NCBI GenBank assembly: GCA_041694835.1
Contig: JBGFRZ010000047.1
Coordinates: 1-23,883, forward strand
DNA length: 23,883 bases
Direction of reading: 5' to 3'
Origin: Ignavibacteria bacterium
GTDB taxonomy: Bacteria; Elusimicrobiota; Endomicrobiia; PHAN01
Shown here: positions 1-14,569 of the stretch, one piece after another
How the letters are laid out: each line of letters begins with the position of its first letter
Numbering within the stretch: the first letter of the stretch is position 1
Translations under genes and position numbers: made by a program
Notes under the pieces: generated by a model
What the model was told of the DNA's origin: nothing
Databases searched by the model: none
The model's input: the letters and a program-made list of their open reading frames with translations, nothing else

Positions 1-54
1 GAAGTAAGCAGAATGCTTGAAGGCATCATTCAAAATTTAAGAGACCGACAATGA
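1..54 (+). CDS. 3' end of a four-helix-bundle (IVS-protein-like) gene, copy 1, truncated by the window edge
   Basis: Frame 1 reads EVSRMLEGIIQNLRDRQ*, the same as the C-terminus of the copy at 3778-4137. TGA at 52-54 overlaps the next ATG (ATGA). Intactness cannot be judged. Confidence 0.85.
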   Translation, partial: EVSRMLEGIIQNLRDRQ

Positions 55-2414
55 GAAAACCATTTACTATTCGCTATTCGCTATTCGCTATTTGCTTACT
101 ATTCGCTATTCGCTATTCGCTATTCGCTCAACAACTCATTGATCTAAACACCGCTTCACATCAGGAACTAACGAGCGTGGAAGGCATAACCGAGACAATC
201 GCAAGAAACATAATTTTTTACAGGACGGCAACGCCGTTTAAAATAGTCGATGATTTGAAAAAAGTTGAAGGCATAACAGAAAATTTATTTCTGCTGGCGA
301 GAGAGCGATTTTTTGTCTCCGTCGTCGGGGAAGATATTGAGATTTACGACGATGTCGGCGAAATCGCTGACGAAGAAGGCGCCGCTTCGCCTATTGACGC
401 CGCTGGCGGCGCAGACGGGACAAGCGTCCTTGAAGATTTGCGAAAGACGCCTCTGGACTTGAATATCGCCAGTAGAACGGATTTTCTGGATTTGCCCGGC
501 ATAACTTTTGCGCTCGCCGAAGCTATTATTGCTTATAGGAGAACCCAGCCGTTTAAGTCGGTGGACGATTTGAAAAAAATCCTCGCCATAACGCCCGAGA
601 TTTATGCCACTATTCTTCCATATATAAGGGTGATGAGAGTCGAAGAACGCGAGTTCTTCGCCGGCGATACGCGAGTGAGAGTGGGTCCATCTATTTCGCC
701 GTCTAAACCCGACGCAAACAATGAATACACGGTAGAACCTTTTAATAACCCGGTGCAACTTTACAACAGAACTCGTCTTCGCTTCGGCTTGAGGTATGAA
801 GCGGGTTATATCATAGACGCGGGAAGATGGGAGCCGTCAATCAATTTTCAGACGCTCAGGGATTTGCATCTTAAAAAGTTTTATGTCAGAGTGAACGAAT
901 CATTTGGTTTCGACAAGGTTGTTATGGGGAATTACCAGTTGCAATTTGCACAAGGTCTTGTCTTTTACTATCCTTACGGGGAACTTGTGCGTCCGATAAA
1001 GGTCAAACCCAGGGGCGTTAAGGTTGACACGGGAACAAATCCAAACACATATTTCAGAGGGGTCGCTGTTGAAAAAAAACTGAGTGCGTTTGATTTTGCG
1101 GGGTTTTATTCATACAAAGGACTTTACGCCGATTTGAACGACGACGGCACAGCGCGATTCGACCTTGAGAGCGATGCGAAGAATGATTTAGGGGATAATA
1201 AGATGTATAGCGCCAGGGACCCTTACAGGAATATCAACCGAAAGGATAATCTTCACGAGGAGTTATTAGGCGCTAGAGTCCAGTGGAATTTTGCTCCGGG
1301 AACTCATATTTCTGTTATCGGTTATGACGCAACATATTCGCCTCACATAAACCATAAAAGCTGGGACGGTAGCAAATATGTTTTAAGGAATATCTATAAA
1401 TTCCGAGGCAACAGAAACACAATTGTGGGCGGCGACTTTGAAACATGGTTTAAAGGAATAAACATTTTTGGAGAGTACGCCAGAAGTTTTGAGCAAGGTA
1501 AGGAAAAACTGAATTTGCCCGCGCCGTTTAATAAGGAAAGGAGCGGCGATGCGTGGCTTTTGCAGTCGATGTATAATTTTAAAAAATTCACTTTCTGGGT
1601 TGCTTATTGGGATTATGCCCCGGATTATTACAACCCCCACTCTTCGGCTCAAGGTGGTCGCACAATGCGGGACAAAGATTATAATCAGGTCGGGACATAT
1701 CTGGGATTATTGCTGAAAGAAAGAAAGATTGAATCTCAGATTTCGTATAAACCGGTCAAATATAAAATTCCGCAGGATGCGAAAAACTATCCCGGGCAAT
1801 CGAATGATTTCTGGTTTGATATAAAATATAAGCCGCAGAAAGAGTATGAAATTTATTACAGGGCATGGCATCACTGGTGGGATGACAGCCATAAAATCAC
1901 ATCAATGGACGGAACAACATCCGAGACGACAGACATTTTGAGGGGATATATTAGGAACAGGTATCAGATTACTTACAAACCGATAAAGGCACTGAGATTA
2001 AAAGTCAGGTTTGATGATTCAAGAAAACTTGTGCCGTCGCAGAATTACGAGGAATTTGGCTGGCTTTCTTATGTGGATGTGGATTATGGGCTCACGTCTG
2101 ATTTAAAACTTTCATTTAGATATATGTTCTTCGATTCACCGTTTTTTGCAATGTCATCGATTGACAATATGTGGCCGGGGGTTCTTGTTCCTTTCTTCTG
2201 GACACAAGGAGAGGGCAAGGGCAGGAGATGGTATTTGGCTCTAAGCCAGAAACTCGACAGAAATACGAGCATATGGCTCAGATATGAAAATCTGTTTTAT
2301 CTGAAAGATGGTTATGACAGACATACTTTTAAAGCGCAGTTCGATTATAAATGGGGCGCCGCTCCACGAAGAGCCCGACGAAGAGAGCGAGAAGATGCTC
2401 TGGATGAGCGATAG
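51..2414 (+). CDS. Helix-hairpin-helix (ComEA-like) domain protein with a probable C-terminal outer-membrane beta-barrel
   Basis: 787-aa ORF with two ComEA-type blocks (IDLNTAS..EL..VEGI....A..II.YR...PF..VDDLKKV.GI; LDLNIAS...LPGI...AEAII.YR..QPF.SVDDLKKI). The C-terminal two-thirds is aromatic-rich and beta-strand-like, and the N-terminus is hydrophobic. Confidence 0.8.
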   Translation: MRKPFTIRYSLFAICLLFAIRYSLFAQQLIDLNTASHQELTSVEGITETIARNIIFYRTATPFKIVDDLKKVEGITENLFLLARERFFVSVVGEDIEIYDDVGEIADEEGAASPIDAAGGADGTSVLEDLRKTPLDLNIASRTDFLDLPGITFALAEAIIAYRRTQPFKSVDDLKKILAITPEIYATILPYIRVMRVEEREFFAGDTRVRVGPSISPSKPDANNEYTVEPFNNPVQLYNRTRLRFGLRYEAGYIIDAGRWEPSINFQTLRDLHLKKFYVRVNESFGFDKVVMGNYQLQFAQGLVFYYPYGELVRPIKVKPRGVKVDTGTNPNTYFRGVAVEKKLSAFDFAGFYSYKGLYADLNDDGTARFDLESDAKNDLGDNKMYSARDPYRNINRKDNLHEELLGARVQWNFAPGTHISVIGYDATYSPHINHKSWDGSKYVLRNIYKFRGNRNTIVGGDFETWFKGINIFGEYARSFEQGKEKLNLPAPFNKERSGDAWLLQSMYNFKKFTFWVAYWDYAPDYYNPHSSAQGGRTMRDKDYNQVGTYLGLLLKERKIESQISYKPVKYKIPQDAKNYPGQSNDFWFDIKYKPQKEYEIYYRAWHHWWDDSHKITSMDGTTSETTDILRGYIRNRYQITYKPIKALRLKVRFDDSRKLVPSQNYEEFGWLSYVDVDYGLTSDLKLSFRYMFFDSPFFAMSSIDNMWPGVLVPFFWTQGEGKGRRWYLALSQKLDRNTSIWLRYENLFYLKDGYDRHTFKAQFDYKWGAAPRRARRREREDALDER
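66..128 (+). repeat. (TATTCGC)n heptamer tract, right arm of cassette 1, translated as the N-terminal hydrophobic segment
   Basis: Tandem TATTCGC/TATTTGC units are directly visible and encode IRYSLFA repeats. Confidence 0.95.
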
Positions 2415-2425
2415 CCGCCGGTAAG

Positions 2426-2499
2426 GAAATTAATAGAAAATGAATAAATTTTCCAATTACAACAAATTTCTATCAATTTCAACTAATTTCTTTTATTTC
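2426..2499. repeat. Inverted decamer-repeat element (GAAATTAATA/GAAAATGAAT ... AACAAATTTC TATCAATTTC AACTAATTTC)
   Basis: 10-nt periodic AATTTC units are complementary to the upstream GAAAT units. The element ends just before GGAG and the ATG at 2511. Confidence 0.6.
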
Positions 2500-2510
2500 T
2501 GGAGTTACTT

Positions 2511-3734
2511 ATGAAAAAACTATTTGCTATTCACTATTTGCTATTTGCTATTCGCTATTTGGTTTTAACTATTGCCTATTGCCTATTACCTATTGCCTAT
2601 CTTCAGGCTTATTCCTATCTCGGCTCCTCCGCCGCGCTCGGCGATATGAGCGTTGGTCAAGGACTTCGTTCCGCTGCTATGGGTGGAGCGGGTATTGGTG
2701 GAAGCGATGAGCCGTCCACATTGCTCCACAATCCTGCGACTATGAATTTCCTTGAACGCAGACAAATCTCCGCCGGGTTCGGATTTGTGCCGTTTACTGA
2801 AAGAGTGAGCACATCCGATAAACGCACATATTACAACGAATCAACTAATTTTCAGATTAACAATTTCGCCGCGGTTTTACCATTTAGAGAAGGCATGTTT
2901 GCCGTCGGATTTGCCTACGCTCCTCTTTACGATTATAATTACAAACATACACAGAATATTTTTAGTCAAGCCGCTCCCGCCACAAAAATTGGTTACAAAG
3001 AATTAGATGCTTCGGGCGGCATCCACGCTATGAGTCCAGCGGTTTCGGTTAAACTGGGCGATTTATTTTCGCTCGGTTTGTCTTACAACATAATAGGGGG
3101 GACACTTAAAAGAAAAACGCATGAAATAGATACCACGGGAACTTCCGCAGTAATAAAATACAGCACATCGATAACCGCTAATGTTTCGGGCGGAAACATA
3201 AATTTCGGATTAGTTTTTACAGGCGTAGGGCCATTAAGAATAGGGCTCAACTACTACGGGCAATCCAGTGTCAATTTGAAAGAAAAAAATGAAACGACAA
3301 ACGTTACAACGGATAGAAAAATCGCTCTGCCGGGTTATATCGGATTTGGCGTTGCGTGGGATTTCGGAGGGATGCGCAACACAAAACTTGCGTTTGATGT
3401 GCTTCCCATTCCTTACAGCGGCGCAAAAGTTGACGATGTAAAAATTGGTTTGTCAGACATAACGGTCTTGAAAATGGGCGTTGAGCATTTTGTTCAGGAA
3501 GATATTCCGTTTAGATTTGGTTTCTACTCGCTCCCTTTCTACGCTGACAGAAAAATAGAACTTGTGGCATTTACATTGGGCGTTGGTTATAAATTATCTG
3601 AAAATGTATTTTTTGATATAATGGGAGAATACGGCAAGAGAAATTTTTTTGGTGATAATTTATTTTTTGATTCTAAAACAAGCGTTGATGAGTCGTTCAA
3701 AAAACTGATGTTTGGCGCAAATTATAAGTGGTAG
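2511..3734 (+). CDS. Outer-membrane beta-barrel protein, OmpP1/FadL-PorV-like
   Basis: 407 aa with a G.RSAAMGGA...S.....HNPA motif typical of FadL/PorV-type N-termini, alternating beta-strand patterns and a terminal YKW. GGAG lies upstream. Confidence 0.75.
   Translation: MKKLFAIHYLLFAIRYLVLTIAYCLLPIAYLQAYSYLGSSAALGDMSVGQGLRSAAMGGAGIGGSDEPSTLLHNPATMNFLERRQISAGFGFVPFTERVSTSDKRTYYNESTNFQINNFAAVLPFREGMFAVGFAYAPLYDYNYKHTQNIFSQAAPATKIGYKELDASGGIHAMSPAVSVKLGDLFSLGLSYNIIGGTLKRKTHEIDTTGTSAVIKYSTSITANVSGGNINFGLVFTGVGPLRIGLNYYGQSSVNLKEKNETTNVTTDRKIALPGYIGFGVAWDFGGMRNTKLAFDVLPIPYSGAKVDDVKIGLSDITVLKMGVEHFVQEDIPFRFGFYSLPFYADRKIELVAFTLGVGYKLSENVFFDIMGEYGKRNFFGDNLFFDSKTSVDESFKKLMFGANYKW
2520..2600 (+). repeat. 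Degenerate (TATTYGC)/(TATTGCC)n heptamer tract encoding the signal-peptide-like N-terminus
   Basis: Units tatttgc tattcac tatttgc tatttgc tattcgc ... tattgcc tattgcc tattacc tattgcc are visible. Confidence 0.9.
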
Positions 3735-3747
3735 ATAATAATTGAAG

Positions 3748-4238
3748 GCGAATAGCAAATAGCGAATAGCAAATAGTATGAGGCCGCATAAAAATCTTAA
3801 AATTTGGGAAAAAGTGATGTTGATGATAGAAGAAATTTATCAGCACACTGGCGGTTTTCCGAGAGAAGAAGTTTATGGATTGACAGCCCAGATATGAAGG
3901 GCGGCGGTTTCTGTCGCTTCAAATATCGCAGAAGGCGCGGCAAGAAAAGGAAAGCAAGAAAAAATTCAATTTTTCAATATTGCCAAAGGTTCGCTGAGTG
4001 AAATAGATGCGCAGTTGGAAATATCTTTCAGGTTAAAGTTTTTAAGCAAAGATGACCATTCAAAGTTTCAGTGCGCAATAGATGAAGTAAGCAGAATGCT
4101 TGAAGGCATTATTCAAAATTTAAGAGACCGACAATGAGAAAACCATTTACTATTCGCTATTCGCTATTCGCTATTTGCTTACTATTCGCTATTCGCTATT
4201 TGCTAATCACTATTTGCTATTCGCTATTCGCTATTCGC
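3748..4238 (+). mobile_element. Four-helix-bundle cassette, copy 2, bounded by inverted heptamer arms
   Basis: Left arm (GCRAATA)x4 at 3748-3775, gene at 3778-4137, right arm (TATTYGC)n at about 4148-4238. Near-identical units occur at 1-128 and 5739-6203. Mobility is inferred from the repeated occurrence only. Confidence 0.7.
3778..4137 (+). pseudogene. Four-helix-bundle protein (23S rRNA IVS-protein-like, TIGR02436-type) with one in-frame TGA
   Basis: Manual translation: MRPHKNLKIWEKVMLMIEEIYQHTGGFPREEVYGLTAQI*RAAVSVASNIAEGAARKGKQEKIQFFNIAKGSLSEIDAQLEISFRLKFLSKDDHSKFQCAIDEVSRMLEGIIQNLRDRQ. The family motifs L.IW, FP.EE.YGL..Q.RR, S..SNIAEG and A.GS..E are present. TGA at 3895-3897 corresponds to CGA in the paralog. 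Confidence 0.9.
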
Positions 4239-5738
4239 TGTCTTTATTCTTTTGAAACCGTAAAATTTCGTTCGCCGAGAACCGGTAGAGTCGTCGACGT
4301 GATAAAAGACGAGGTCTTAATTGTTTTTCACGAAGGAATTAAGACGGAAGCAAAAAATGCACTTCATCGGGCTCTGCGCACGACGAAAATCACTGACGAT
4401 ACAGACGAGATATTCTTTCAGAAAGTTAGAATCCCCGCTGGCGAGACCATTGAAAACGTAATACAAAAATACAAGGCCGACCCAGCGGTGAGATATGCCG
4501 AGCCCAACTTTATAAAAAGAAAATTTACCGCTGTCAACGACCCGCTTTATACGGAAAATCCCACAGATGTAGCCAGACAATGGGGGATTGCAAAAATCAA
4601 TGTCAAACAAGCATGGGGTATCTCAACCGGTTCAGGCGTTGTAGTTGCCGTTTTAGATACAGGAATTGACAAAGACCATCCTGATTTTGCGTCAGCGCTA
4701 ACCCCACCGGAGACATGGGGCGTTTATATCGGAACAACAGGTATAAAGGATGTCGACGGACACGGCACTCATGTTGCTGGGATAATCGCCGCCCGTTCCA
4801 ACGGACAGTATGTGGTGGGTGTTGCGACAAATTGTTTGATTCTGCCGATAAAAGTTCTTGGCGATGACAGAAAGGGGACTTTGGCTTCGGGGATTAACGG
4901 GCTTATTTATGCTTCGACCGTTACAATACCTGGCCATCCCGCGGGTGTCCGAATAATAAATTTAAGTTTGGGAAATTATGAATTTTCGGATATAGAGAAT
5001 TTTGCAATCCAAGAGGTCTACAACAAAGGAATAAGTATAATAGCCGCCTCTGGCAACGACAACCGCGACAGCCTCGCGTATCCGGCGGGATATGCAAATG
5101 TTCTTGCGGTCGGCTCCTCCACACCCGATGACACGCGTTCTTCTTTTTCCAACTATGGCTCAAACCTGGGTTTAGTTGCACCGGGCGGCAGAGGTCTGGT
5201 GATAGCCGGTGAGCCCGGCGATATTATTTCGACTTACCCACTTGTGCGCGGAGCCACAGCATACCTTGCGGGCACTTCAATGGCAACACCATTTGTTTCA
5301 GGTGTCGCCGCTTTGATGCTGTCTGCAAACCCCAATTTGTCGCCAAAAGATGTTTATCATATTCTGCGCCACACAACCGATGATATAGACACTCCCGGTC
5401 GCGATATCCGCACAGGATATGGGCGACTTAATGCTTTTAAAGCGGTAAACGCCGTCGTCGGCTACTCTCCAAAAATTCTTGCAAAAGCATATTCATATCC
5501 CAATCCGTTGCATATCGCAAAAAGGCAGGTGGTATATTTTTATATCCCCGAAGCCCTCGGTGTAGAAAATCTCAGGATAAGAATATATAATTTCGCAGGC
5601 GACGAAATAAAAGCCATTAGTGAAAATATGTGGGACGGGAAAGACGACAACGGAAATCTTGTCCCGACGGGACTTTACTTTTTTGCGGTCGAGACATCCA
5701 GAGGCAAAAGCACGGGGAAGATGACGGTTATTAGATAA
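4134..5738 (+). CDS. S8 (subtilisin-like) serine peptidase with prodomain and C-terminal T9SS-sorting/FlgD-Ig-like domain
   Basis: Triad motifs VAVLDTG, HGTHVAG and GTSMA. The prodomain ends V.YAEPN. The C-terminus reads YSYPNP...IRIYN..G...WDGKDDNG..VPTG.YF...TGKMTVIR. Confidence 0.92.
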   Translation: MRKPFTIRYSLFAICLLFAIRYLLITICYSLFAIRCLYSFETVKFRSPRTGRVVDVIKDEVLIVFHEGIKTEAKNALHRALRTTKITDDTDEIFFQKVRIPAGETIENVIQKYKADPAVRYAEPNFIKRKFTAVNDPLYTENPTDVARQWGIAKINVKQAWGISTGSGVVVAVLDTGIDKDHPDFASALTPPETWGVYIGTTGIKDVDGHGTHVAGIIAARSNGQYVVGVATNCLILPIKVLGDDRKGTLASGINGLIYASTVTIPGHPAGVRIINLSLGNYEFSDIENFAIQEVYNKGISIIAASGNDNRDSLAYPAGYANVLAVGSSTPDDTRSSFSNYGSNLGLVAPGGRGLVIAGEPGDIISTYPLVRGATAYLAGTSMATPFVSGVAALMLSANPNLSPKDVYHILRHTTDDIDTPGRDIRTGYGRLNAFKAVNAVVGYSPKILAKAYSYPNPLHIAKRQVVYFYIPEALGVENLRIRIYNFAGDEIKAISENMWDGKDDNGNLVPTGLYFFAVETSRGKSTGKMTVIR

Positions 5739-6203
5739 GCGAATAGCAAATAGCGAATAGCGAATAGTGATATGAGTCCACATAAAAATCTTAAAATTTG
5801 GGAAAAAGTGATGTTGATGATAATTGTCATACCAATAACTTTCCCAAAGAGGAAGTTTATGATTTGATAGTCCAAATACGAAGGGAGGCTGTTTCGGTTG
5901 CTTCAAATATCGCAGAAGGTGCAGCAAGAAAAAAGAAAAGGAAAACAAGAGAAAATTCAATTTTTTAATATTGCCAAAGGGTCACTGAGCGAAATAGATG
6001 CGCAGTTGGAAATATCTTTCAGGTTAAAGTTTCAGTGTGCAATAGATGAAGTAAGCAAAATGCTTGAAGGCATCATTCAAAATTTAAGAGACCGACAATG
6101 AGAAAACCATTTACTATTCGTTATTCGCTATTCGCTATTTGCTTACTATTCGCTATTCGCTGTTTACTCTTCACTATTTGCTATTTGCTATTCGCTATTC
6201 GCT
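5739..6203 (+). mobile_element. Four-helix-bundle cassette, copy 3, bounded by inverted heptamer arms
   Basis: Left arm (GCRAATA)x4 starts immediately after the S8 stop codon, followed by a degenerate gene at 5772-6101 and a right arm at about 6112-6203. Confidence 0.7.
5772..6101 (+). pseudogene. Four-helix-bundle protein pseudogene (frameshifted)
   Basis: Starts MSPHKNLKIWEKVMLMI. Relative to copy 2 it has an approximately 10-nt deletion near 5823, a 7-nt AAGAAAA duplication near 5930 and a 27-nt deletion between AAAGTTT repeats near 6030. It ends LEGIIQNLRDRQ*. Confidence 0.88.
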
Positions 6204-7033
6204 GTCTTTATTCTTCGCCTTTTCTGAAACTTCCGACTGGTGCTCGGGGCTTGGCACTATCTGGGAGTTATGTTGCTGGCGAGGATTTAAGCGTTGTTGA
6301 ATATAACCCAGCGGGACTTATGACATACAGAGGACTCAACGCCGAATTTTCGTATATGAGACACCTTGAAGAAACGACTATTAACAGTCTTTATGGCGGA
6401 TACACTTCAAGAAAATTCGCCCTGGCGTTCGGCTACAAAGGTTATTCCGCAGATGACACAGCGAGGGACACATTGGGTGCAGAGGCGGGTAAAATCACTC
6501 ATTCGGAATCGGTAATCAGCGGAGCGGTTGGTTTGACTATGGCCAGGAATTTTTCGGCGGGGCTGAATGTCAGGTTGCTTTCAAGAAAAATTTCAGACTC
6601 AAGTATTGGGGGTATTAGCACATCACTTTCAGGAATAATTTTTGATGTAGGATTTATGTATTTGCGAGGAGCCGATAGTTATGGTGTTTCCATAACGAAT
6701 ATCGGCAGCGGAATGAAGTTTGATTACATAGGAGCCGTCCCGGAAGCTCCACCTTTGACATACTCTCTTGGCGGTCGGCACAGTATTGGAAGAATCAGCG
6801 GTTTGTGGCAGATTTCAAAATTAAACGACAATAAAAGGCTCTTAATTTCGACGGCACTTGAATACCATATAATCGAGCATCTTGCCTTAAGGGGCGGGAT
6901 TAAATATCTTAAAGCGTTTGATGTTTCTTTAGGAGCAGGATTCAGGTGGAATAAGTTTCATATTGATTATGCTCTTTCGCCTCATGTCGATTTCGGAGCG
7001 GTTCACAATATTTCCGTCGGGGTAAGATTTTAA
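6098..7033 (+). CDS. PorV/PorQ-family outer-membrane protein
   Basis: 311 aa with the N-terminal motif FLKLPTGARGLALSG.Y......YNPAGL and a C-terminal IDYA.....FG.VH.ISVG.RF ending in Phe. Confidence 0.8.
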   Translation: MRKPFTIRYSLFAICLLFAIRCLLFTICYLLFAIRCLYSSPFLKLPTGARGLALSGSYVAGEDLSVVEYNPAGLMTYRGLNAEFSYMRHLEETTINSLYGGYTSRKFALAFGYKGYSADDTARDTLGAEAGKITHSESVISGAVGLTMARNFSAGLNVRLLSRKISDSSIGGISTSLSGIIFDVGFMYLRGADSYGVSITNIGSGMKFDYIGAVPEAPPLTYSLGGRHSIGRISGLWQISKLNDNKRLLISTALEYHIIEHLALRGGIKYLKAFDVSLGAGFRWNKFHIDYALSPHVDFGAVHNISVGVRF

Positions 7034-7128
7034 AAAAGTTGAAGGTTAAAGGTTGAAGGTTAAAATGTTTTGCTGTAATTTAAATTTTAACTTTTGACCT
7101 TTTAATTTCCGCATTGGCGGGTCGGAGG
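7034..7128 (+). repeat. Empty inverted heptamer element (RAAGGTT)n...(RACYTTT)n followed by a CCGC-ATTG-GCGG hairpin and GGAGG
   Basis: Arms at 7034-7061 and 7082-7102, hairpin at 7109-7120, SD at 7124-7128. Confidence 0.75.
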
Positions 7129-7132
7129 TTCT

Positions 7133-7291
7133 ATGGCAGAAGGAAGATGTATGAAGTGCAAGAAGCAGGTTGAGATTAAAGACGCAAAAGAAGTTGAGTT
7201 CAAAGGTAAAGGTGACGCTGTGAGAAAAGCTCTTCAGGGAGTGTGTCCCACCTGCGGGACTAAAGTTTTTAGAATTTTAGGAAAAAAATAA
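7133..7291 (+). CDS. Small basic zinc-ribbon protein, DUF5679-like (52 aa; not in the ORF track)
   Basis: MAEGRCMKCKKQVEIKDAKEVEFKGKGDAVRKALQGVCPTCGTKVFRILGKK has two CxxC motifs. GGAGG lies 4 nt before the ATG. Confidence 0.85.
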   Translation: MAEGRCMKCKKQVEIKDAKEVEFKGKGDAVRKALQGVCPTCGTKVFRILGKK

Positions 7292-7347
7292 TAGCCGCAC
7301 CGACGCTACAAAATCACACTATCTTTTATCTCTATACCTTGTTAAAT

Positions 7348-7418
7348 CTCCGGGGCTTGGATTCGAACCAAGATCCCGTGGTCCAGAGCCACGTATCCTA
7401 CCGTTGGACGACCCCGGA
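7348..7418 (-). tRNA. tRNA-Gln (anticodon CTG)
   Basis: Cloverleaf TCCGGGG...CGTGG-CT-CTG-GA-CCACG...CTTGG-TTCGAAT-CCAAG-CCCCGGA-G. CCA is not encoded. Confidence 0.95.
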
Positions 7419-7423
7419 ATAAA

Positions 7424-7705
7424 TTAGTGCTTTGTCTCTGAACTTTGTATTTTCTTGACTTCATCTGCATAGTTCAACTCAAGGTCTGACAAAGTTGTAA
7501 TTAAAAGCTTTTCTTCTTCTTCAGAAAGATTCCCCGCCATTTTTTCTTTTATCATCAGCAACATATCGATTGAAATTTGCGCATGCTCTAACTGTCTTTC
7601 TATTTTGCCGTTTATGGGATTTGGAATTTTGCCCAACTGCTGCCAGCATGCGGATGCGAGCATTAAAACAAGATTTATGAAATTAGGATTTGTCTTCTTC
7701 TCCAT
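7424..7705 (-). CDS. DUF1844-domain protein
   Basis: 93 aa matching the pattern F..LV.ML...QQLG..PNP..GK....LE.A...IDML..I.EK..GNL..EE..LL...L.DL.L.Y. Confidence 0.8.
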   Translation of the reverse strand: MEKKTNPNFINLVLMLASACWQQLGKIPNPINGKIERQLEHAQISIDMLLMIKEKMAGNLSEEEEKLLITTLSDLELNYADEVKKIQSSETKH

Positions 7706-9329
7706 ATTCTAGATATTCGCTTAAAAATTTTGCAATCCTTTCAACCACTTTTTGTTTGCCAAGAAGTTCAAGCAAGTCAAAAAGTCCGGGGCCATACATT
7801 CTTCCCGAAACCGCCACCCTTACGGGATGAAATGCCCTGGATGTTTTGATGCCATTAAGTTCACAGAAATTTCTTACGGATTTTTCGAGAAGAACTTTTG
7901 AGAAATCGTTGCAATTTTCAAAGATGGGCAACAAATCGCGCAGTATCTTGTCTGCGTTTTCATCTTTTAGAACTTTTTCTAGCGCAGAACTTTCATATTT
8001 TACATCATTTAAGACGAAAAAGTCAATTATGTTGGGAACATCGCTGAGCAGTTTTATTTTTTCTTTCTCGGTGCGAAGAATTTTTATAATTAGTCCGGGA
8101 TTATCCATAGGCAGAGCGGCGTTCGTTATAAACGGAATTGACTTCTTATATATTTCTTCGGCGGAGAGTTTTTTAAGGTATTCCATATTGAGCCACTGAA
8201 GTTTTTGTATGTCAAAAATAGCGGGGCTTTTTGAACATTTCTCAAGCGAGAATTTATTGAGCAGTTCGTCTAATTCAAAAATTTGCTGGCTGTCCGATGT
8301 TGACCAGCCAAGAAGCGCAAGATAATTGATAAGTGCCACATTGAGATATCCGTCATTCTTGTATTCCAAAACGCTCGTGTGTCCATGCCTTTTTGAAAGT
8401 CGACTTCCGTCGGGACCAAGTATCATAGAAAGATGAGCGAATTGCGGCAACTCCCAGTTCAAGGCATTGTAGAGATGAATTTGTCGCGGCGTGTTTGAGA
8501 GATGGTCGTCGCCTCTTATTACATGCGATATCTCCATCAGTTTATCGTCTATGGTGCATGCGAAGTTGTATGTGGGAACTCCCGACGCTTTCAGAATAAC
8601 AAAATCGTCCAGCAATGTGTTTTCAAATTCAAGATGTCCGCGGACAATGTCGTCAAACGCGATTTTTCCTTCCCGCGGCATCTTAAATCTTATTACAGCA
8701 TTCTGTCCCCCGCCATCTGTTCTCACTCCTCTATTCCTGCATCTTCCGTCGTATTTAGGGGGAAGTTTTTTTGATTGTTGCTCTTCGCGCATTGTTTTGA
8801 GTTCTTCGGGAGTGCAGTAACAGTAGTATGCTTTTCCGTTGGAAATAAGTTGTTTGGCGTATTTTTTGTAGATGTCGAGCCGCTCCATTTGGAAATAAGG
8901 CCCATACGAACCAAGTTGAGAGTTGAGAGTTGAGGGGTGAGAGGTGAGAGGTGAGAGGTGAGAGTTGAGAGATGAGAGTTGAGAGATGAGGGGTGGGGGG
9001 TGAGTTTTTTCTCTGTCCCCCGTTTTCTGTCCTCTGACCTCTGTCCTCTGTCCTCTGACCTCTGTCCCCTGTCCTCTGACCTCTGTTCTCTGTCCCCTGT
9101 CCTCTATTTTCGGGCCTTCGTCCCAATTTAAACCCAGCCATTGCATACTTTCAATTATTGCTCTTATCGATTCATCCGTTGAGCGGGCTTCGTCGGTATC
9201 CTCGATTCTTAAAATAAATGCGCCTCCGTTTTTCTTTGCAAACAGCCAGTTAAAAAGAGCGGTTCTTGCTCCGCCGATGTGCAAATATCCCGTCGGAGAA
9301 GGCGCAAATCTGACTCGGATTTTGTTCAT
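7683..9329 (-). CDS. gltX: Glutamate--tRNA ligase with a 66-aa repeat-derived insertion
   Basis: Motifs RVRFAPSPTG.LHIGG (HIGH), LRIEDTD, SHVIRGDDH and RLSKR (KMSKS equivalent), plus a C-terminal anticodon-binding domain. Confidence 0.96.
   Translation of the reverse strand: MNKIRVRFAPSPTGYLHIGGARTALFNWLFAKKNGGAFILRIEDTDEARSTDESIRAIIESMQWLGLNWDEGPKIEDRGQRTEVRGQGTEVRGQRTEVRGQKTGDREKTHPPPLISQLSSLNSHLSPLTSHPSTLNSQLGSYGPYFQMERLDIYKKYAKQLISNGKAYYCYCTPEELKTMREEQQSKKLPPKYDGRCRNRGVRTDGGGQNAVIRFKMPREGKIAFDDIVRGHLEFENTLLDDFVILKASGVPTYNFACTIDDKLMEISHVIRGDDHLSNTPRQIHLYNALNWELPQFAHLSMILGPDGSRLSKRHGHTSVLEYKNDGYLNVALINYLALLGWSTSDSQQIFELDELLNKFSLEKCSKSPAIFDIQKLQWLNMEYLKKLSAEEIYKKSIPFITNAALPMDNPGLIIKILRTEKEKIKLLSDVPNIIDFFVLNDVKYESSALEKVLKDENADKILRDLLPIFENCNDFSKVLLEKSVRNFCELNGIKTSRAFHPVRVAVSGRMYGPGLFDLLELLGKQKVVERIAKFLSEYLEYGEEDKS
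8913..9110 (-). repeat. In-frame two-arm heptamer element inside gltX: (ACAGAGG/TCAGAGG)n - spacer - (CTCTCAA/CTCTCAC)n
   Basis: 198 nt between the codons for WDEGP and GSYGPY. Heptamer periodicity is clear on both arms. Confidence 0.93.
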
Positions 9330-9503: not shown

Positions 9504-10361
9504 TTATTTTGCGCATCTAAACCCGACGTCGTATCTGACTTCGTCGGGTTTTATAATATCGCGTATATAGACGGCGGCCAGAGTTTTCGATGTTTTGAAA
9601 GATCCACCTCTTACAACGATGTACATCTTTCCGAATTTGTCGTTTTTATAGATGCAACCCGGGTATGGCTGGAAAAAAGAGTCGGTTATTTCCTTCGCGT
9701 TGCCCGCCATATCTAAGCATCCGTAAGGGCTTTTACCTTCAACAAATACGCCCGTTTTTTTGAGCCATCCCAGACCGAGCCACGAACTAACGTTTGCCAA
9801 GTTGTCATACCATGTTCCTCCCCAAGGATAGCGTCTTCCGTCGATGCCCCTCGCCGCTTTTTCCCATTCCATTTCGGTGGGGAGCCTTTTGCCTGCCCAT
9901 TTGGCGTATAAATGAGCGTCATAGTAGGAGACATTTGTAACGGGATAATCGTCTGTTCCGCCCGGAAAGTCGCCGTTTTTCCAGTGCCTCGGTGGTCTAT
10001 GCTTCGTAGCGTCGATGAATCTTTTATACTGAACGTTTGTGACTTCATATTTATCGATATGGAAGCTGTCGATGTATATTTTTCTTCTCGGGCCTTCGTA
10101 AGGAAAACTCTCGTTCGTTCCCATAATAAACTCACCGGCAGGCACAAAGACCATTCCAGGGATTTCTCGCTGTTTTTTGTCTGCGGCATAAAGACATTTG
10201 TAAGATGAGAAAGTGATAAAGTGACAAAGTAAAAAAGTAAAAAGTAAAAAGTGGAAAAAACATAAAGTATAAAACACAGATAGTTTTAAACACTTTCTGT
10301 TTTCAGCTTTTCGCATTTGTTTTTTGGCCTGTGCCTCGCACCGTACTCTCGGATTTATCAT
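9504..10361 (-). CDS. Formylglycine-generating-enzyme (SUMF1/EgtB/PvdO) family protein; the true start may be ATG at 10316
   Basis: Motifs MVFVPAGEFIMG, F.IDKYEVTN.QY..F, PVTNVS..DA..YA.WAGKRLPTE.EWEKAARG, DMAGN, RGGS and GFRCA. Confidence 0.92.
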   Translation of the reverse strand: MINPRVRCEAQAKKQMRKAENRKCLKLSVFYTLCFFHFLLFTFLLCHFITFSSYKCLYAADKKQREIPGMVFVPAGEFIMGTNESFPYEGPRRKIYIDSFHIDKYEVTNVQYKRFIDATKHRPPRHWKNGDFPGGTDDYPVTNVSYYDAHLYAKWAGKRLPTEMEWEKAARGIDGRRYPWGGTWYDNLANVSSWLGLGWLKKTGVFVEGKSPYGCLDMAGNAKEITDSFFQPYPGCIYKNDKFGKMYIVVRGGSFKTSKTLAAVYIRDIIKPDEVRYDVGFRCAK

Positions 10362-11572: not shown

Positions 11573-14569
11573 TTATCTACCTTCTCTCAGTTTGGCAGCG
11601 GCCATTTTTCTTAAGACCGGGTCCGGGTCGTTAGCAGATATATATTTTAACGCCGTAAGAACTCTCGGATTTTTTATGTCAATCAGTGATTCGATAGCTT
11701 TTTGCCTGTATGCAGGATTTTCTTCCTTCAGCGCGCGCACTGTAAGATTGATGGACGCTTCCGACTTTAGATTTTTCAGTTGTTCTATAACCCACATCTT
11801 TAATTCAGGTTTGTTTAGAACATAAAGTTTTTCAAGCTCTGGGATGTCGCTTTCGTCTATAAGTTTGGATAAAACAGCCAAAAATTCATGGTTTTCTTTT
11901 CTGTTCCGGGGGTTTAAAAATTTCGCCATGTTAAAAAGAACGGGATTCGCTTCATGTAAGTTCAATTTAGGAATGATACCGAGGGCGTAATTGCGTGAGT
12001 GCCAGTTTTCGTCGTTAAGGGCTTTTAATATATACGGCAGATGAGATTTGTTCAATATCGAATCGAGAATAGATTTCGCTTCATCTCTGACCGAGGAATC
12101 GCTGTCTTTAACGAGGTTGAAATATATGTATATCGTTTTTTCATCGTTATCACCCATCTGAAAAAGCGCTTTCACAGCGTTTTTTCTGCACTCGGGATAT
12201 ATGTCTTTTTCGGCCATTTTTCTCAAACTCGAAATCGCGTCCCGGACATTCGCTTTGCCCATGATTTTTGCGGAGAGAGTTCTTATCGACATGTCATTAT
12301 CAGAAAGCATGGTCTGGATTTTTTTTAGTGCTTCTTCATTTACTATATTCTCTATCGCAAGAAGAGCGTTTTGTCTTACAGAAATATCCGTGTCGCCGAG
12401 GAGCGGGATTATTTTGGTGGCGTGCTCAAATCTCGGGTTCTTTGCCATGAACTTTAAAGCCTCCTCTCTTACAGATGGATTTGCGTCAGAAAGCGCCCCT
12501 AGAATATCATCGGAGACATCCGTTTTTTGTGTTTCGTTTATCGCTTTTGATGCCATCCATCGTATCTCGGGGTTTTTGTCTTTCAGCGCAAGCATCAAAA
12601 ATGGATGAGGCTCTGCCATTTTTAAATTTCTTATTACCTCAATAAGCGAATATCTGATTTCGGTGTCCGACTTTTCGTAGTCTATGTATTCGAGATTTTT
12701 GGCGAATTTCTTTGAAGGGAATCTTTTTAACACCCCGAGTATAAAAAGCCGCATTTGCTTTTTTTGTATTTTAAGATGTTCTGAAAGCTCAACGACATCT
12801 TGCTCGTTTTTGACGATTTTTTCTATAGCGTCTTTGGCTCTGAGAGAAACCTCTATATTTTTATCGTTAGCCGCCCTTGCGAGATGGGGAATGGCCGAGG
12901 TGTCGGCGCGAGATGAGAGTATCTCTATAGCCTGAAATTTGATTTCGTCCGGATGTTTCTCTAAAAAGTGAAAAGCCAGTGTGTAAGGCGCGGGCACAAG
13001 TTTATCCATTGTTTTTAATACCTCTTTTTTGACGGACGCATCAGTTTCTTTTTTAACGAATATTTCAAGCACTTCCACCGATTCCCCATATTTTATTTTT
13101 GATATTTTTTCCAGGCACCGCAAGGCTGCTATCCTCGTCTGCGGAGATTTGGACATTGCGGCTTTTTTTATTTCCGGCAGGTTATCTTGGGAAGATATCG
13201 AGTACATCGCTTCCGTAAGCACTTCCGAAACATATTTGTTGCTCTCGTTTTCGATGGCCGATATCAGAAAATGAAACATCGTGCTTTCTTCGGATATTTT
13301 TATCAGTGCACCTGCATTTTTTCTTCTGATGGGATTCTTTGAGTTAAGCTCCGTTATTAAATAATAAATGAATTTTTTATCGAAGAGCTTTTGAAGGTTG
13401 CTCTCGGCCGCGGTTCTTACTTTTTTGTCGGGGTCGTCAAGCATTGAAAATATCATTGGGAAGGCGTCTTTTTCTCCTATGTCGCAGATGTTCTCGACGC
13501 AAAATGCCCGAATTTTAGGCGAACCCATCTTCAGAGCCGCAATCCAATAAACGAGCGAGTCGCTGCCATCAAGATTTTTTAGTATGGATGGTATATTTTT
13601 TTGTATTTTCTCGTCCCTGTCCAAGAGAAGAGAGAGCGTCTTTCCTATGAAAGGGTAGTATCCGATTTTGGATATCGTTCTTGCGGCTTCAAGCCGTATT
13701 TCCGGAATCTCGTCTTTCAGATATTTTTCAAGTATTACAAGTGAGATTTTATTTTTTCCGAATTTGTGTAAAATCCTTGAAATGGCGTATCTTATGTTGT
13801 CATTTTCGACGGATATCGATTTAAAATAGTCGATAACTTCTTCGCGTTCGAAACTGCTTATCAGATCAAGCGTTTCATATACCAGGGTTGTTTCGTTTTT
13901 TGCTGTTGACACAAACGTTTTAAGCGTTTGAAAAGTGAAATCGTCTTTATTTGAAAGAATGATTTTTCTTGCAAGATCTTTAACCTCTGCATCGCTGTCG
14001 TCGAGTAGCGGAAGTATATGTTTTAAATAATCGTTCCTTAAATACGCGGTTATGCCTTTTAGTCCGGCTTCCCTCACCGAATTATCCGGGTCGATGAGCG
14101 CCGCTCTCAATATGCCGAAAGATTCGGGCGACTTCATCTGTGACATTTTTTCAACAGCATCTTTTCTTCTGTCGGGTTGCCCAAGCTCGAACTGGGATTT
14201 CAGAGCGTTGAAATCCTGAGCATTTAATGGAGGGAGCAGAGAATAGCAAATAGCGAATAGCGACGTAGCAATATAGCGACGTAGCGACACGGCAAACAGC
14301 GAATAGCGGATAGAGATGAGAGGTGAGAGGTGAGGGGTGAGAGAATAAAATGCCGTAAAGCGGAAAGCGTAAATGGTGAAGGGTGAGAGAATAAAATGCC
14401 GTAAAGCGGAAAGCGTAAAGGGTGAAGGGTGAGAGATAAAATATCGCGAAGCGTAAAGCGTGAAGAGGGAACGGCTTTTAACTCTTTCCGCTTCCCGCTT
14501 TCCGATATACGCTTCCCGCTTCCCGCTTTCCGTTTTCTGTCCTCTGACCTCTGTCCTCTGTCTTTTCAT
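11573..14569 (-). CDS. Large HEAT-repeat protein with a repeat-derived N-terminus; the true start is uncertain
   Basis: Many L.D.D..VR..A...L units over about 880 aa. The ATG lies 9 nt after the hisG stop. Confidence 0.88.
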   Translation of the reverse strand: MKRQRTEVRGQKTESGKREAYIGKREAERVKSRSLFTLYASRYFISHPSPFTLSALRHFILSPFTIYAFRFTAFYSLTPHLSPLISIRYSLFAVSLRRYIATSLFAICYSLLPPLNAQDFNALKSQFELGQPDRRKDAVEKMSQMKSPESFGILRAALIDPDNSVREAGLKGITAYLRNDYLKHILPLLDDSDAEVKDLARKIILSNKDDFTFQTLKTFVSTAKNETTLVYETLDLISSFEREEVIDYFKSISVENDNIRYAISRILHKFGKNKISLVILEKYLKDEIPEIRLEAARTISKIGYYPFIGKTLSLLLDRDEKIQKNIPSILKNLDGSDSLVYWIAALKMGSPKIRAFCVENICDIGEKDAFPMIFSMLDDPDKKVRTAAESNLQKLFDKKFIYYLITELNSKNPIRRKNAGALIKISEESTMFHFLISAIENESNKYVSEVLTEAMYSISSQDNLPEIKKAAMSKSPQTRIAALRCLEKISKIKYGESVEVLEIFVKKETDASVKKEVLKTMDKLVPAPYTLAFHFLEKHPDEIKFQAIEILSSRADTSAIPHLARAANDKNIEVSLRAKDAIEKIVKNEQDVVELSEHLKIQKKQMRLFILGVLKRFPSKKFAKNLEYIDYEKSDTEIRYSLIEVIRNLKMAEPHPFLMLALKDKNPEIRWMASKAINETQKTDVSDDILGALSDANPSVREEALKFMAKNPRFEHATKIIPLLGDTDISVRQNALLAIENIVNEEALKKIQTMLSDNDMSIRTLSAKIMGKANVRDAISSLRKMAEKDIYPECRKNAVKALFQMGDNDEKTIYIYFNLVKDSDSSVRDEAKSILDSILNKSHLPYILKALNDENWHSRNYALGIIPKLNLHEANPVLFNMAKFLNPRNRKENHEFLAVLSKLIDESDIPELEKLYVLNKPELKMWVIEQLKNLKSEASINLTVRALKEENPAYRQKAIESLIDIKNPRVLTALKYISANDPDPVLRKMAAAKLREGR
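14238..14562 (-). repeat. Composite of several heptamer/octamer repeat families plus a 46-bp tandem duplication, all in frame in the HEAT ORF
   Basis: On +: GCRAATA and TAGCGACG units, then TGAGAGG units, a 46-bp unit at 14335-14380 and 14381-14426, AAAGCG units inverted to CGCTTYC units, then CCTCTGW units. Confidence 0.9.

Follow-up and report, generated by a model that had tools for sequence, protein, structure and literature searches.

The window analysed here is an entire contig of 23,883 nt (G000:C6) from the genome of an Ignavibacteria bacterium. This genome (1.9 Mb in 89 contigs, 97% complete) is called G000 below, and the other G numbers denote genomes of relatives. The window carries a repeated cassette that consists of a (GCRAATA)n arm, a four-helix-bundle (4HB) gene of the family PF05635/TIGR02436, an ATGA overlap of stop and start codons, and a (TATTYGC)n arm, and that reaches from the stop codon of the gene before it up to where the mature part of an exported protein begins. 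What is new here is that unrelated proteins carry one and the same leader in four copies, and that the syntenic positions of a relative are empty. It is probable, judging from sequence comparison, that the unit is an intervening sequence (IVS)-type cassette residing in operons, and that the leader is borne by the cassette and now serves as start codon and putative Sec signal.

Copies of the cassette

Two complete cassettes, copy B (3748-4250) and copy C (5738-6214), and one copy cut by the contig end, copy A (1-128), are present in the window, all on the forward strand. A preliminary description of this DNA had claimed such a repeated unit; the unit is real, and the coordinates given here slightly correct its boundaries. 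In copy B, the left arm (3748-3777) is (GCRAATA)4 and has TAG in every frame. The 4HB gene (3778-4137) matched PF05635 with an E value of 8.9e-35 and 119.6 bits (cut-off 33.8), and TIGR02436 with 114.6 bits (cut-off 24) when an X was placed at an in-frame TGA (3895-3897). The ATGA overlap (4134-4137) is followed by the right arm (4150-4239), in which Tandem Repeats Finder (TRF) detected 13.3 copies of period 7. A leader of 39 aa (4134-4250) begins at the ATG overlapping the 4HB stop, passes through three arm blocks and ends in CLYS, after which the mature sequence starts with FETVKF.

Copy C contains a left arm (5738-5770), a decayed 4HB gene (5771-6101) with indels and pieces in two frames, an ATGA overlap (6098-6101), a right arm (6114-6203) and a 39-aa leader (6098-6214) ending in CLYS before mature SPFLKLP. 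The TAA stop (5736-5738) of the upstream S8 peptidase gene takes part in the complementarity of its arms. In copy A the contig begins inside the 4HB gene, the 3′ end of which (1-54) has a TGA stop (52-54) overlapping an ATG at 51; the 26-aa leader (51-128) is MRKPFTIRYSLFAICLLFAIRYSLFA, followed by mature QQLIDLNTAS. Copy A matched copy B at 96.9% by BLAST, and the two were also aligned.

Homology between copies B and C stops at 4251 and 6215, the first mature codon in each case. Identity between the two copies is 96–98% in the arms and in the ATG plus 63 nt, and 80–92% in the 4HB body, where copy C aligned to copy B shows 44 gap columns. With the in-frame TGA in copy B and the indels in copy C, the 4HB genes of both complete copies are pseudogenes. 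Recoding of the TGA in copy B was considered and ruled out, since a paralogue has CGA at this position and the 4HB genes here end in TGA. Retention of the arms and leader while the 4HB gene decays reflects either constraint or gene conversion acting on the parts used by the neighbouring genes.

The right arm is composed of two or three blocks of about 30 nt, each complementary to the left arm (90–97% over 29–30 nt in copy B and 87–91% over 31–33 nt in copy C). In the predicted fold of copy B RNA, the left arm pairs with the distal block of the right arm; the minimum free energy was -147.4 kcal/mol (z -3.9), and none of 100 shuffled sequences was as stable.

The open reading frames (ORFs) starting at the three cassette ATGs, 51-2414, 4134-5738 and 6098-7033, are identical over their first 21 residues, as had been claimed. 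A fourth copy of the cassette heads a PorV-family gene at G000:C79:29999-30931 (186 bits). In all four copies, one homology block joins the 3′ end of the 4HB gene, the ATG and the leader, and the flanks diverge immediately outside it. The earlier claim that the leader is encoded within the cassette agrees with this single block standing before unrelated genes.

When copy B was compared with the genome by BLAST, the left arm and the 5′ part of the 4HB gene were found at the ends of contigs C41 and C87, and the 3′ part and the leader at the start of C6 and the end of C79. In G001, a relative described below, the gene before the ComEA-like gene (51-2414 in the window) is orthologous to the last gene on C41, and because of this agreement in gene order copy A very likely bridges C41 and C6. 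The final four codons and the stop of this C41 gene (...ANSK, TAG) fall inside the left arm of the cassette. Unique sequence of a single contig surrounds copies B and C. The left arm of the fourth copy (G000:C87:27130-27200) is broken up by a small GC-rich palindrome, GCGGCGGGATTGCTATCCCGC.

Empty sites in relatives and coding properties of the right arm

Genome G001 belongs to the same family as G000 and to another genus; the 40 relatives searched include no member of the genus of G000. Its region C7:119000-129500 has the gene order of window positions 1-9300, namely ComEA-like, barrel, type IX secretion system (T9SS) protease, PorV-like and gltX. In this syntenic stretch TRF found no period-7 or period-8 array and the ORF list contained no 4HB gene; the single PF05635 match of G001 lies on contig C21. 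The G001 orthologues have ordinary signal peptides, and homology to the window proteins starts where the arm-coded leaders end. For the ComEA-like protein, the G001 leader MKKAIGIAAILALTALGPSAGILAA (...GILAA) is followed by QEDVDLNAAS, and the window sequence ...YSLFA by QQLIDLNTAS. For the PorV-like protein, ...PSGARA precedes SSFLKMP in G001 and ...RCLYS precedes SPFLKLP in the window. The barrel between them in gene order, whose window leader is array-coded (see below), reads ...ASGGAWS then QSYLGA in G001 and ...AYLQA then YSYLGS in the window, and the G001 orthologue of a formylglycine-enzyme-like protein has the ordinary leader ...GGSILSA before PGRQ. The suggestion in the preliminary description that orthologous loci might be empty and carry ordinary signal peptides was thus borne out by the G001 locus, which lacks arrays and cassette.

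Orthologues of the S8 peptidase (38–41% identity) were found in 5 further genomes among 41 searched, the window's own included. Read by eye, they have ordinary leaders straight before the motif F-Q/E-x-x-K-F, for example ...SEA then FQREKF and ...AGA then FQVEKF, at the position where the window protein has CLYS then FETVKF. A direct duplication lies within the leader of one of them (G012). The stop of the S8 gene and the ATG of the PorV-like gene overlap in G006 and G015 and are three bases apart in G003; the two genes overlap or nearly abut in relatives, and the ancestral site was therefore without a cassette. At about five G000 sites (C52, C81, C6 and C87/C79), a cassette lies between a gene with a T9SS-type C-terminal sorting domain and a PorV-family barrel gene. 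Such gene pairs are directly adjacent in relatives, with an ATGA overlap in two cases.

The right arm has the properties of an open coding sequence. The word TATTCGC reads YSLFAIR in all three frames and its complement has TAG in all three, and the right-arm arrays contain no stop in any frame, reading YSLFAIR or YLLFAIC. An ATG overlapping the 4HB stop was present in 8 of 12 G000 cassettes. Five of these 8 run into ORFs of 311–548 residues, all of outer-membrane or T9SS type, and three stop after 16–20 codons, before a membrane sensor, before AhcY, or with nothing close. When copy A and the C79 copy are added, the ATGA start is in frame with a long ORF in 7 of 7 exported cases, and the arm frame of the remaining 3 among 10 ATGA-type copies ends after 16–20 codons.

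Between the cassette ATGs and the mature N-termini, the only other in-frame start-type codon noted was a TTG in the S8 arm, and a leader started there would lack a basic N-region. In ORFs 51, 4134 and 6098 the arms are not followed by another hydrophobic segment, and no further in-frame ATG precedes the mature domains, in keeping with the claim that these proteins have no other obvious signal peptide. According to a heuristic, the leader has a charge of +3 in its first 8 residues and an uncharged core of 12–13 residues. Its best 10-residue hydropathy was 3.21 vs a median of 2.54 for signal-peptide-like N-termini of G001. Judged by Sec (signal peptidase I) criteria, again heuristic only, LFA precedes Q and LYS precedes F or S at the candidate cleavage sites, and Arg residues interrupt the hydrophobic region. 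The earlier claim that the cassette supplies a start codon and a putative export signal is supported by sequence; translation would begin at the cassette ATG, probably by coupling to the frame of the 4HB gene or to what is left of it, and the leader would then direct export and be cleaved.

Related arrangements were observed in other genomes. PorV-like genes at L060 and L064 in relatives also read through the right arm. At L068 (G038:C86), a cytoplasmic sugar-nucleotide dehydratase starts at the cassette ATGA and gains an N-terminal extension from a right arm that is not hydrophobic; L063 (G014:C54) resembles it by eye, and a scripted check found no ATG there within -4 to +12 of the 4HB stop. 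At G026:C56:1978-2289 (L065), G013:C4:56012 and G020:C59:135 the 4HB frame is open for 440–458 residues, and at L065 it continues without a stop across the right arm and into a PorV-like gene.

Arrays, leaders and exported proteins across the genome

The ComEA-like protein (51-2414, +) has two HHH_3 modules (Pfam HHH_3, E value 5.2e-28) and a large C-terminal domain, and is 64–66% identical to its orthologues in G001 and G002. The S8 subtilase (4134-5738, +; Peptidase_S8, E value 2.6e-60) has an N-terminal prodomain and a T9SS-type C-terminal sorting domain, for which the CHU_C and Por_Secre_tail matches were under their cut-offs. The PorV/PorQ-family outer-membrane barrel (6098-7033, +) matched NF033709 with 98.7 bits (cut-off 90), and the PorV_fam profile aligns from residue 40, directly after the leader. 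Two further ORFs of the window have array-coded leaders without a 4HB gene. One encodes a PorV-family/FadL-like outer-membrane barrel (2511-3734, +) with weak family matches (Toluene_X 29.8 bits, cut-off 29.7; BamG 67, cut-off 250; PorV_fam 52.8, cut-off 90); its leader (2520-2600) comes from TATTTGC/CTATTGC arrays and no 4HB gene lies upstream. The other is a formylglycine-generating-enzyme-like gene (9504-10361, -), named by reading its sequence, with a leader from period-7/8 arrays (10206-10258) that ends in KCLYA. Leaders ending in (C/Y)LY(A/G/S) recur genome-wide after arrays of differing units.

Short arrays are abundant in G000, and neither their number nor the pairing of the cassette arms is a chance pattern. 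Perfect arrays of at least 3 copies numbered 104 for period 7 and 0–24 for every other period from 4 to 12. Of 2238 TRF rows, 800 were of period 7 and 403 of period 8, and these merged into 1085 arrays. Strong period-7 arrays occurred at 143.6 per Mb in G000 vs 25.1 in G001, and strong period-8 arrays at 52.9 vs 0.8. There were 15 PF05635 matches in G000, an intact 4HB copy at C52:44972 among them, and 0–5 in each of 40 relatives. In all 12 G000 cassettes examined, an array of a purine-rich word and its reverse complement flank the 4HB gene, and the words vary by 4HB subfamily. Arm complementarity exceeded that of all 372 shuffles in 11 of the 12, and the remaining one was above the 99th percentile; among 19 cassettes of relatives it exceeded all shuffles in 11 and was not significant in 4. 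The 25 genes adjoining 13 4HB genes all share the strand of the 4HB gene.

At 14 G000 cassette sites, 7 cassettes feed an exported protein through the arm, 6 stand before genes of other kinds (AhcY, two sugar enzymes, a MotA-like protein, an Fe-S protein and a membrane sensor), and 1 has no gene close. The claimed targeting of secreted-protein genes finds no support, with only 7 of 14 sites feeding exported proteins. In the seven non-exported sites, the arm frame stops after 16–20 codons in 3, and the 4HB stop lacks an overlapping ATG in 4. Because half of the sites are non-exported, and the arm frame there stops early or lies before the gene's own start, the link with exported genes is better explained by a selective filter on where a hydrophobic arm open in all frames is tolerated, which is a sufficient explanation, than by targeting.

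For an enrichment test, 1.19 of ~2.1 Mb of G001 was sampled, with crude ORF calls in both genomes. Orthologue pairs of G000 and G001 (631 reciprocal best hits, 624 usable) were classed by the N-terminus of the G001 orthologue, which was signal-peptide-like by our own rule-based caller in 181 of 624 (29% background). A pyrimidine-rich array at the start of homology was found in 24 of 181 positives vs 27 of 443 others (odds ratio 2.36, p 0.0056). Arrays inside the ORF with no later in-frame start were found in 15 of 181 vs 10 of 433 (odds ratio 3.9, p 0.0011); on inspection by eye, 7 or more of the 10 others also have hydrophobic leaders in G001, which are array-type themselves and so were missed by the caller.

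Several points weigh against the reading of the arm as a cassette-borne leader. The leaders contain Arg inside the hydrophobic region and are long in copies B and C, and since neither complete 4HB gene is intact, translational coupling of a simple kind is in doubt; taken together, the Arg residues, the 39-residue length and the broken 4HB frames cast real doubt on the efficiency of translation and cleavage. In the RNA fold as predicted, the stem closes around the ATG and two of the arm blocks. Many array-coded leaders occur without a 4HB gene, and arrays may arise or persist without the cassette. Junctions and array lengths are those of the assembly alone, and two of the four copies are truncated at contig ends. 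Genes and signal peptides were called with crude heuristics, and G001 was the only relative sampled in bulk. There is also no Shine-Dalgarno core before the cassette ATG, an objection that was dropped after the core motif was found at only 72 of 193 confident G000 starts.

The array-coded leaders lacking a 4HB gene bear most directly on an alternative in which pyrimidine-rich heptamer arrays arise or expand in situ in signal-peptide regions, where nearly any hydrophobic sequence would do, and the 4HB cassette enters later by homologous recombination of arrays with the same unit, donating no leader. At least 20 such leaders have no 4HB gene nearby (for example 2511-3734, 9504-10361 on the minus strand, C62:1514 and C62:11592), and about 61 scattered arrays with AATAGCG/AAATAGC units offer homology for exchange. 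On that order of events, however, one would have to account for the identical ATG, MRKPF and first arm block, which are contiguous with the 4HB 3′ end in 4 of 4 copies, for the array-free syntenic sites of G001, and for the occurrence of the leader, among 5.8 billion database proteins in the length range searched, in only four proteins, all of this genome, which fits recent copying as a unit. We regard this alternative as unlikely.

It is less likely still that the arrays act as a phase-variation switch in which slippage of the 7-nt repeat toggles surface and outer-membrane genes, as CTCTT does in Neisseria opa leaders. The 7-nt unit is not divisible by 3, arrays are found in the leader regions of T9SS cargo and PorV-family genes, and the opa genes, as described in the part of PMC3960869 used here, provide a precedent. 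Yet the arrays are interrupted, with at most 3–4 perfect units in a row, all 7 cassette-fed genes are in frame, and such arrays also border cytoplasmic genes and make up hairpins between genes.

The least probable alternative is that the arms are non-coding 5′-untranslated-region or terminator hairpins, or repeat-induced mis-joins, with the long ORFs appearing only because the arm lacks stops in every frame and with the true starts elsewhere: longest-ORF calling does over-extend through purine-rich arrays (48 of 103 strong 5′ arrays are purine-rich) and contigs break within two of the four copies, but no alternative in-frame ATG or hydrophobic segment lies between the arm and the conserved mature N-termini, the signal peptides of orthologues sit exactly at the arm position, a Sec signal is required by T9SS cargo and outer-membrane barrels, copies B and C stand in unique sequence of one contig, and the join of C41 to C6 agrees with G001 synteny.

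Arrays of this kind were also observed at other places in the window. The gltX gene (7683-9329, -) has an in-frame insert of ~63 residues at 8914-9105 that consists of two heptamer arrays (RGQRTEV... then SQLSSLNSHLSPLTS...) and lies in a loop of the glutamyl-tRNA synthetase; the G001 orthologue has 13 ordinary residues at this site. At 14241-14562, upstream of an ORF encoding a 998-aa HEAT-repeat-like protein (11573-14569, -), four heptamer arrays surround a 46-nt unit present three times. These flanking arrays are mutually non-complementary, and therefore not all arrays are hairpin arms. Right after the stop of the PorV-like gene, a hairpin without cargo (7034-7105) is formed by (AAAGGTT)n and its reverse complement, (TTTAACC-type)n, ~13 nt apart; no counterpart was seen in the syntenic region of G001.

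Proposed spread and comparison with known systems

A search of 5.8 billion database proteins, within the length range searched, gave 4 matches to the MRKPF leader from 56 candidates, all of them proteins of this genome. The limitation of the leader to four proteins of one genome fits recent intragenomic copying. The exact 30-nt pattern near the junction had 0 matches among metagenome contigs, and a protein-guided metagenome scan returned one distant locus with 37% identity, which was uninformative. No match to the reverse transcriptase family PF00078 was found in the 97%-complete genome, which upholds the statement in the preliminary description that no such enzyme is visible.

Some cassettes share the ends TAAAGRCAG...CTGTCTTTA, with inverted arms. 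No consistent target-site duplication was seen at the cassettes. The terminal 9-mer (CTGTCTTTA / TAAAGACAG) was considered as a candidate transposon end and is kept as a lead; it was not enriched genome-wide, with 37 matches vs a shuffled mean of 21.5 and a maximum of 90. About 10 of the 37 matches lie at array ends directly before mature N-termini, 9 of them flagged by script with an array at most 40 nt upstream.

Based on the above, the following course of events is proposed. The unit would be an IVS-type cassette lying co-directionally inside mRNA operons. In the 4HB subfamily concerned, stop codon and ATG share the sequence ATGA, Arg-Lys comes next, and (TATTYGC)n after it. Four near-identical copies would have spread within the genome, each taking the place of everything between the upstream stop codon and the start of the mature part of an exported protein. 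These proteins would now start at the cassette ATG, and the arm may act as a Sec-type leader with a basic N-region, 12–13 hydrophobic uncharged residues and a small residue at -1. A translated hydrophobic arm would be tolerated or useful only before an exported domain, and elsewhere the arm frame would end early.

A more far-reaching scheme, which appears doubtful, would make the cassette a frame-agnostic operon adaptor: the left arm would end any frame, the ATGA would restart translation, the open arm would fuse to whatever lies downstream, and slippage by one unit would correct the frame. In that scheme the 4HB protein would copy the cassette independently of reverse transcriptase, and would have seeded the ~1,000 heptamer and octamer arrays; the export signals of about a tenth of this lineage's secretome would have been rewritten by the cassette.

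If the cassette does carry the leader as proposed, an element known as an oddity of rRNA genes also shapes protein-coding operons, ending one gene, starting the next, and able to swap native signal peptides for repeat-coded sequence in several unrelated exported proteins. It would also give a concrete origin for part of the unexplained excess of heptanucleotide repeats in bacterial genomes. The (YSLFAIR)n leaders would then be natural, minimal, repeat-built sequences for probing what Sec recognition needs, and the function of PF05635/TIGR02436 would become approachable by comparing a lineage in which it is expanded (15 matches) with array-poor relatives (0–5). For annotation, gene starts and signal peptides may lie inside apparent intergenic repeat DNA.

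Four known systems resemble the cassette in part, in addition to the rRNA elements treated last. The accessory protein Avd of diversity-generating retroelements belongs to a related four-helix-bundle fold family. A reading of the 4HB protein as Avd was rejected: the matches were weak and under the cut-offs, with 42.5 bits for NF033474 (cut-off 80) and 32 bits for PF22296 (bAvd; cut-off 40), and the genome has no reverse transcriptase. Rickettsia palindromic elements, an example of in-frame palindromic or MITE-like repeats, are small repeats of inverted symmetry that survive in coding sequence, where their translation is tolerated. They form internal surface segments of proteins, unlike the cassette, which carries a gene and replaces an N-terminal start and targeting signal.

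The opa genes of Neisseria have CTCTT coding repeats in the leader-peptide region and vary in phase, according to the part of PMC3960869 used here. As in the cassette, the hydrophobic leader of outer-membrane proteins is encoded by short tandem repeats with a unit length not divisible by three. The opa repeats are perfect slippage tracts and have no gene-bearing inverted-repeat cassette, whereas the cassette arrays are imperfect, paired with a complementary arm and common to unrelated genes.

Heptanucleotide direct repeats are abundant between genes, for example TAACTGA in marine Beggiatoaceae, and their excess in many genomes has long been noted, as stated in the sections of PMC4679880 consulted. 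G000 likewise has too many period-7 arrays across its genome, and in both cases they frequently lie shortly before a start codon. In contrast to G000, those sections make no link to PF05635, inverted pairing or signal peptides, and the terms "S23", "helix bundle" and "signal peptide" have 0 occurrences in the paper (PMC4679880). In a literature search that covered articles, supplements excluded, no published link of PF05635 genes to arms of word repeats or to donated signal peptides was found.

The closest system is the IVS of 23S rRNA genes carrying the S23p ORF, as in Leptospira and Coxiella burnetii, which is bordered by complementary sequence and cut by RNase III (PMC4990558, in the passages used). 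The cassette and the IVS have in common a PF05635/TIGR02436 protein and complementary borders able to form a stable stem. Both are transcribed within the host RNA and in host orientation, and the ORF tends to decay (same passages of PMC4990558). The two differ in position and in their borders. Unlike the IVS, the cassettes of the window lie between protein-coding genes and not in helices 9, 25 or 45 of 23S rRNA, their arms are arrays of tandem 7- or 8-nt words, and the arms overlap the coding sequence of the neighbours, with a stop on the left and a start and leader on the right. An RNase III gene is present in the genome (G000:C30:8179-8559), and excision of the cassette by RNase III, unlike that of the IVS, would destroy the leader of the gene downstream.

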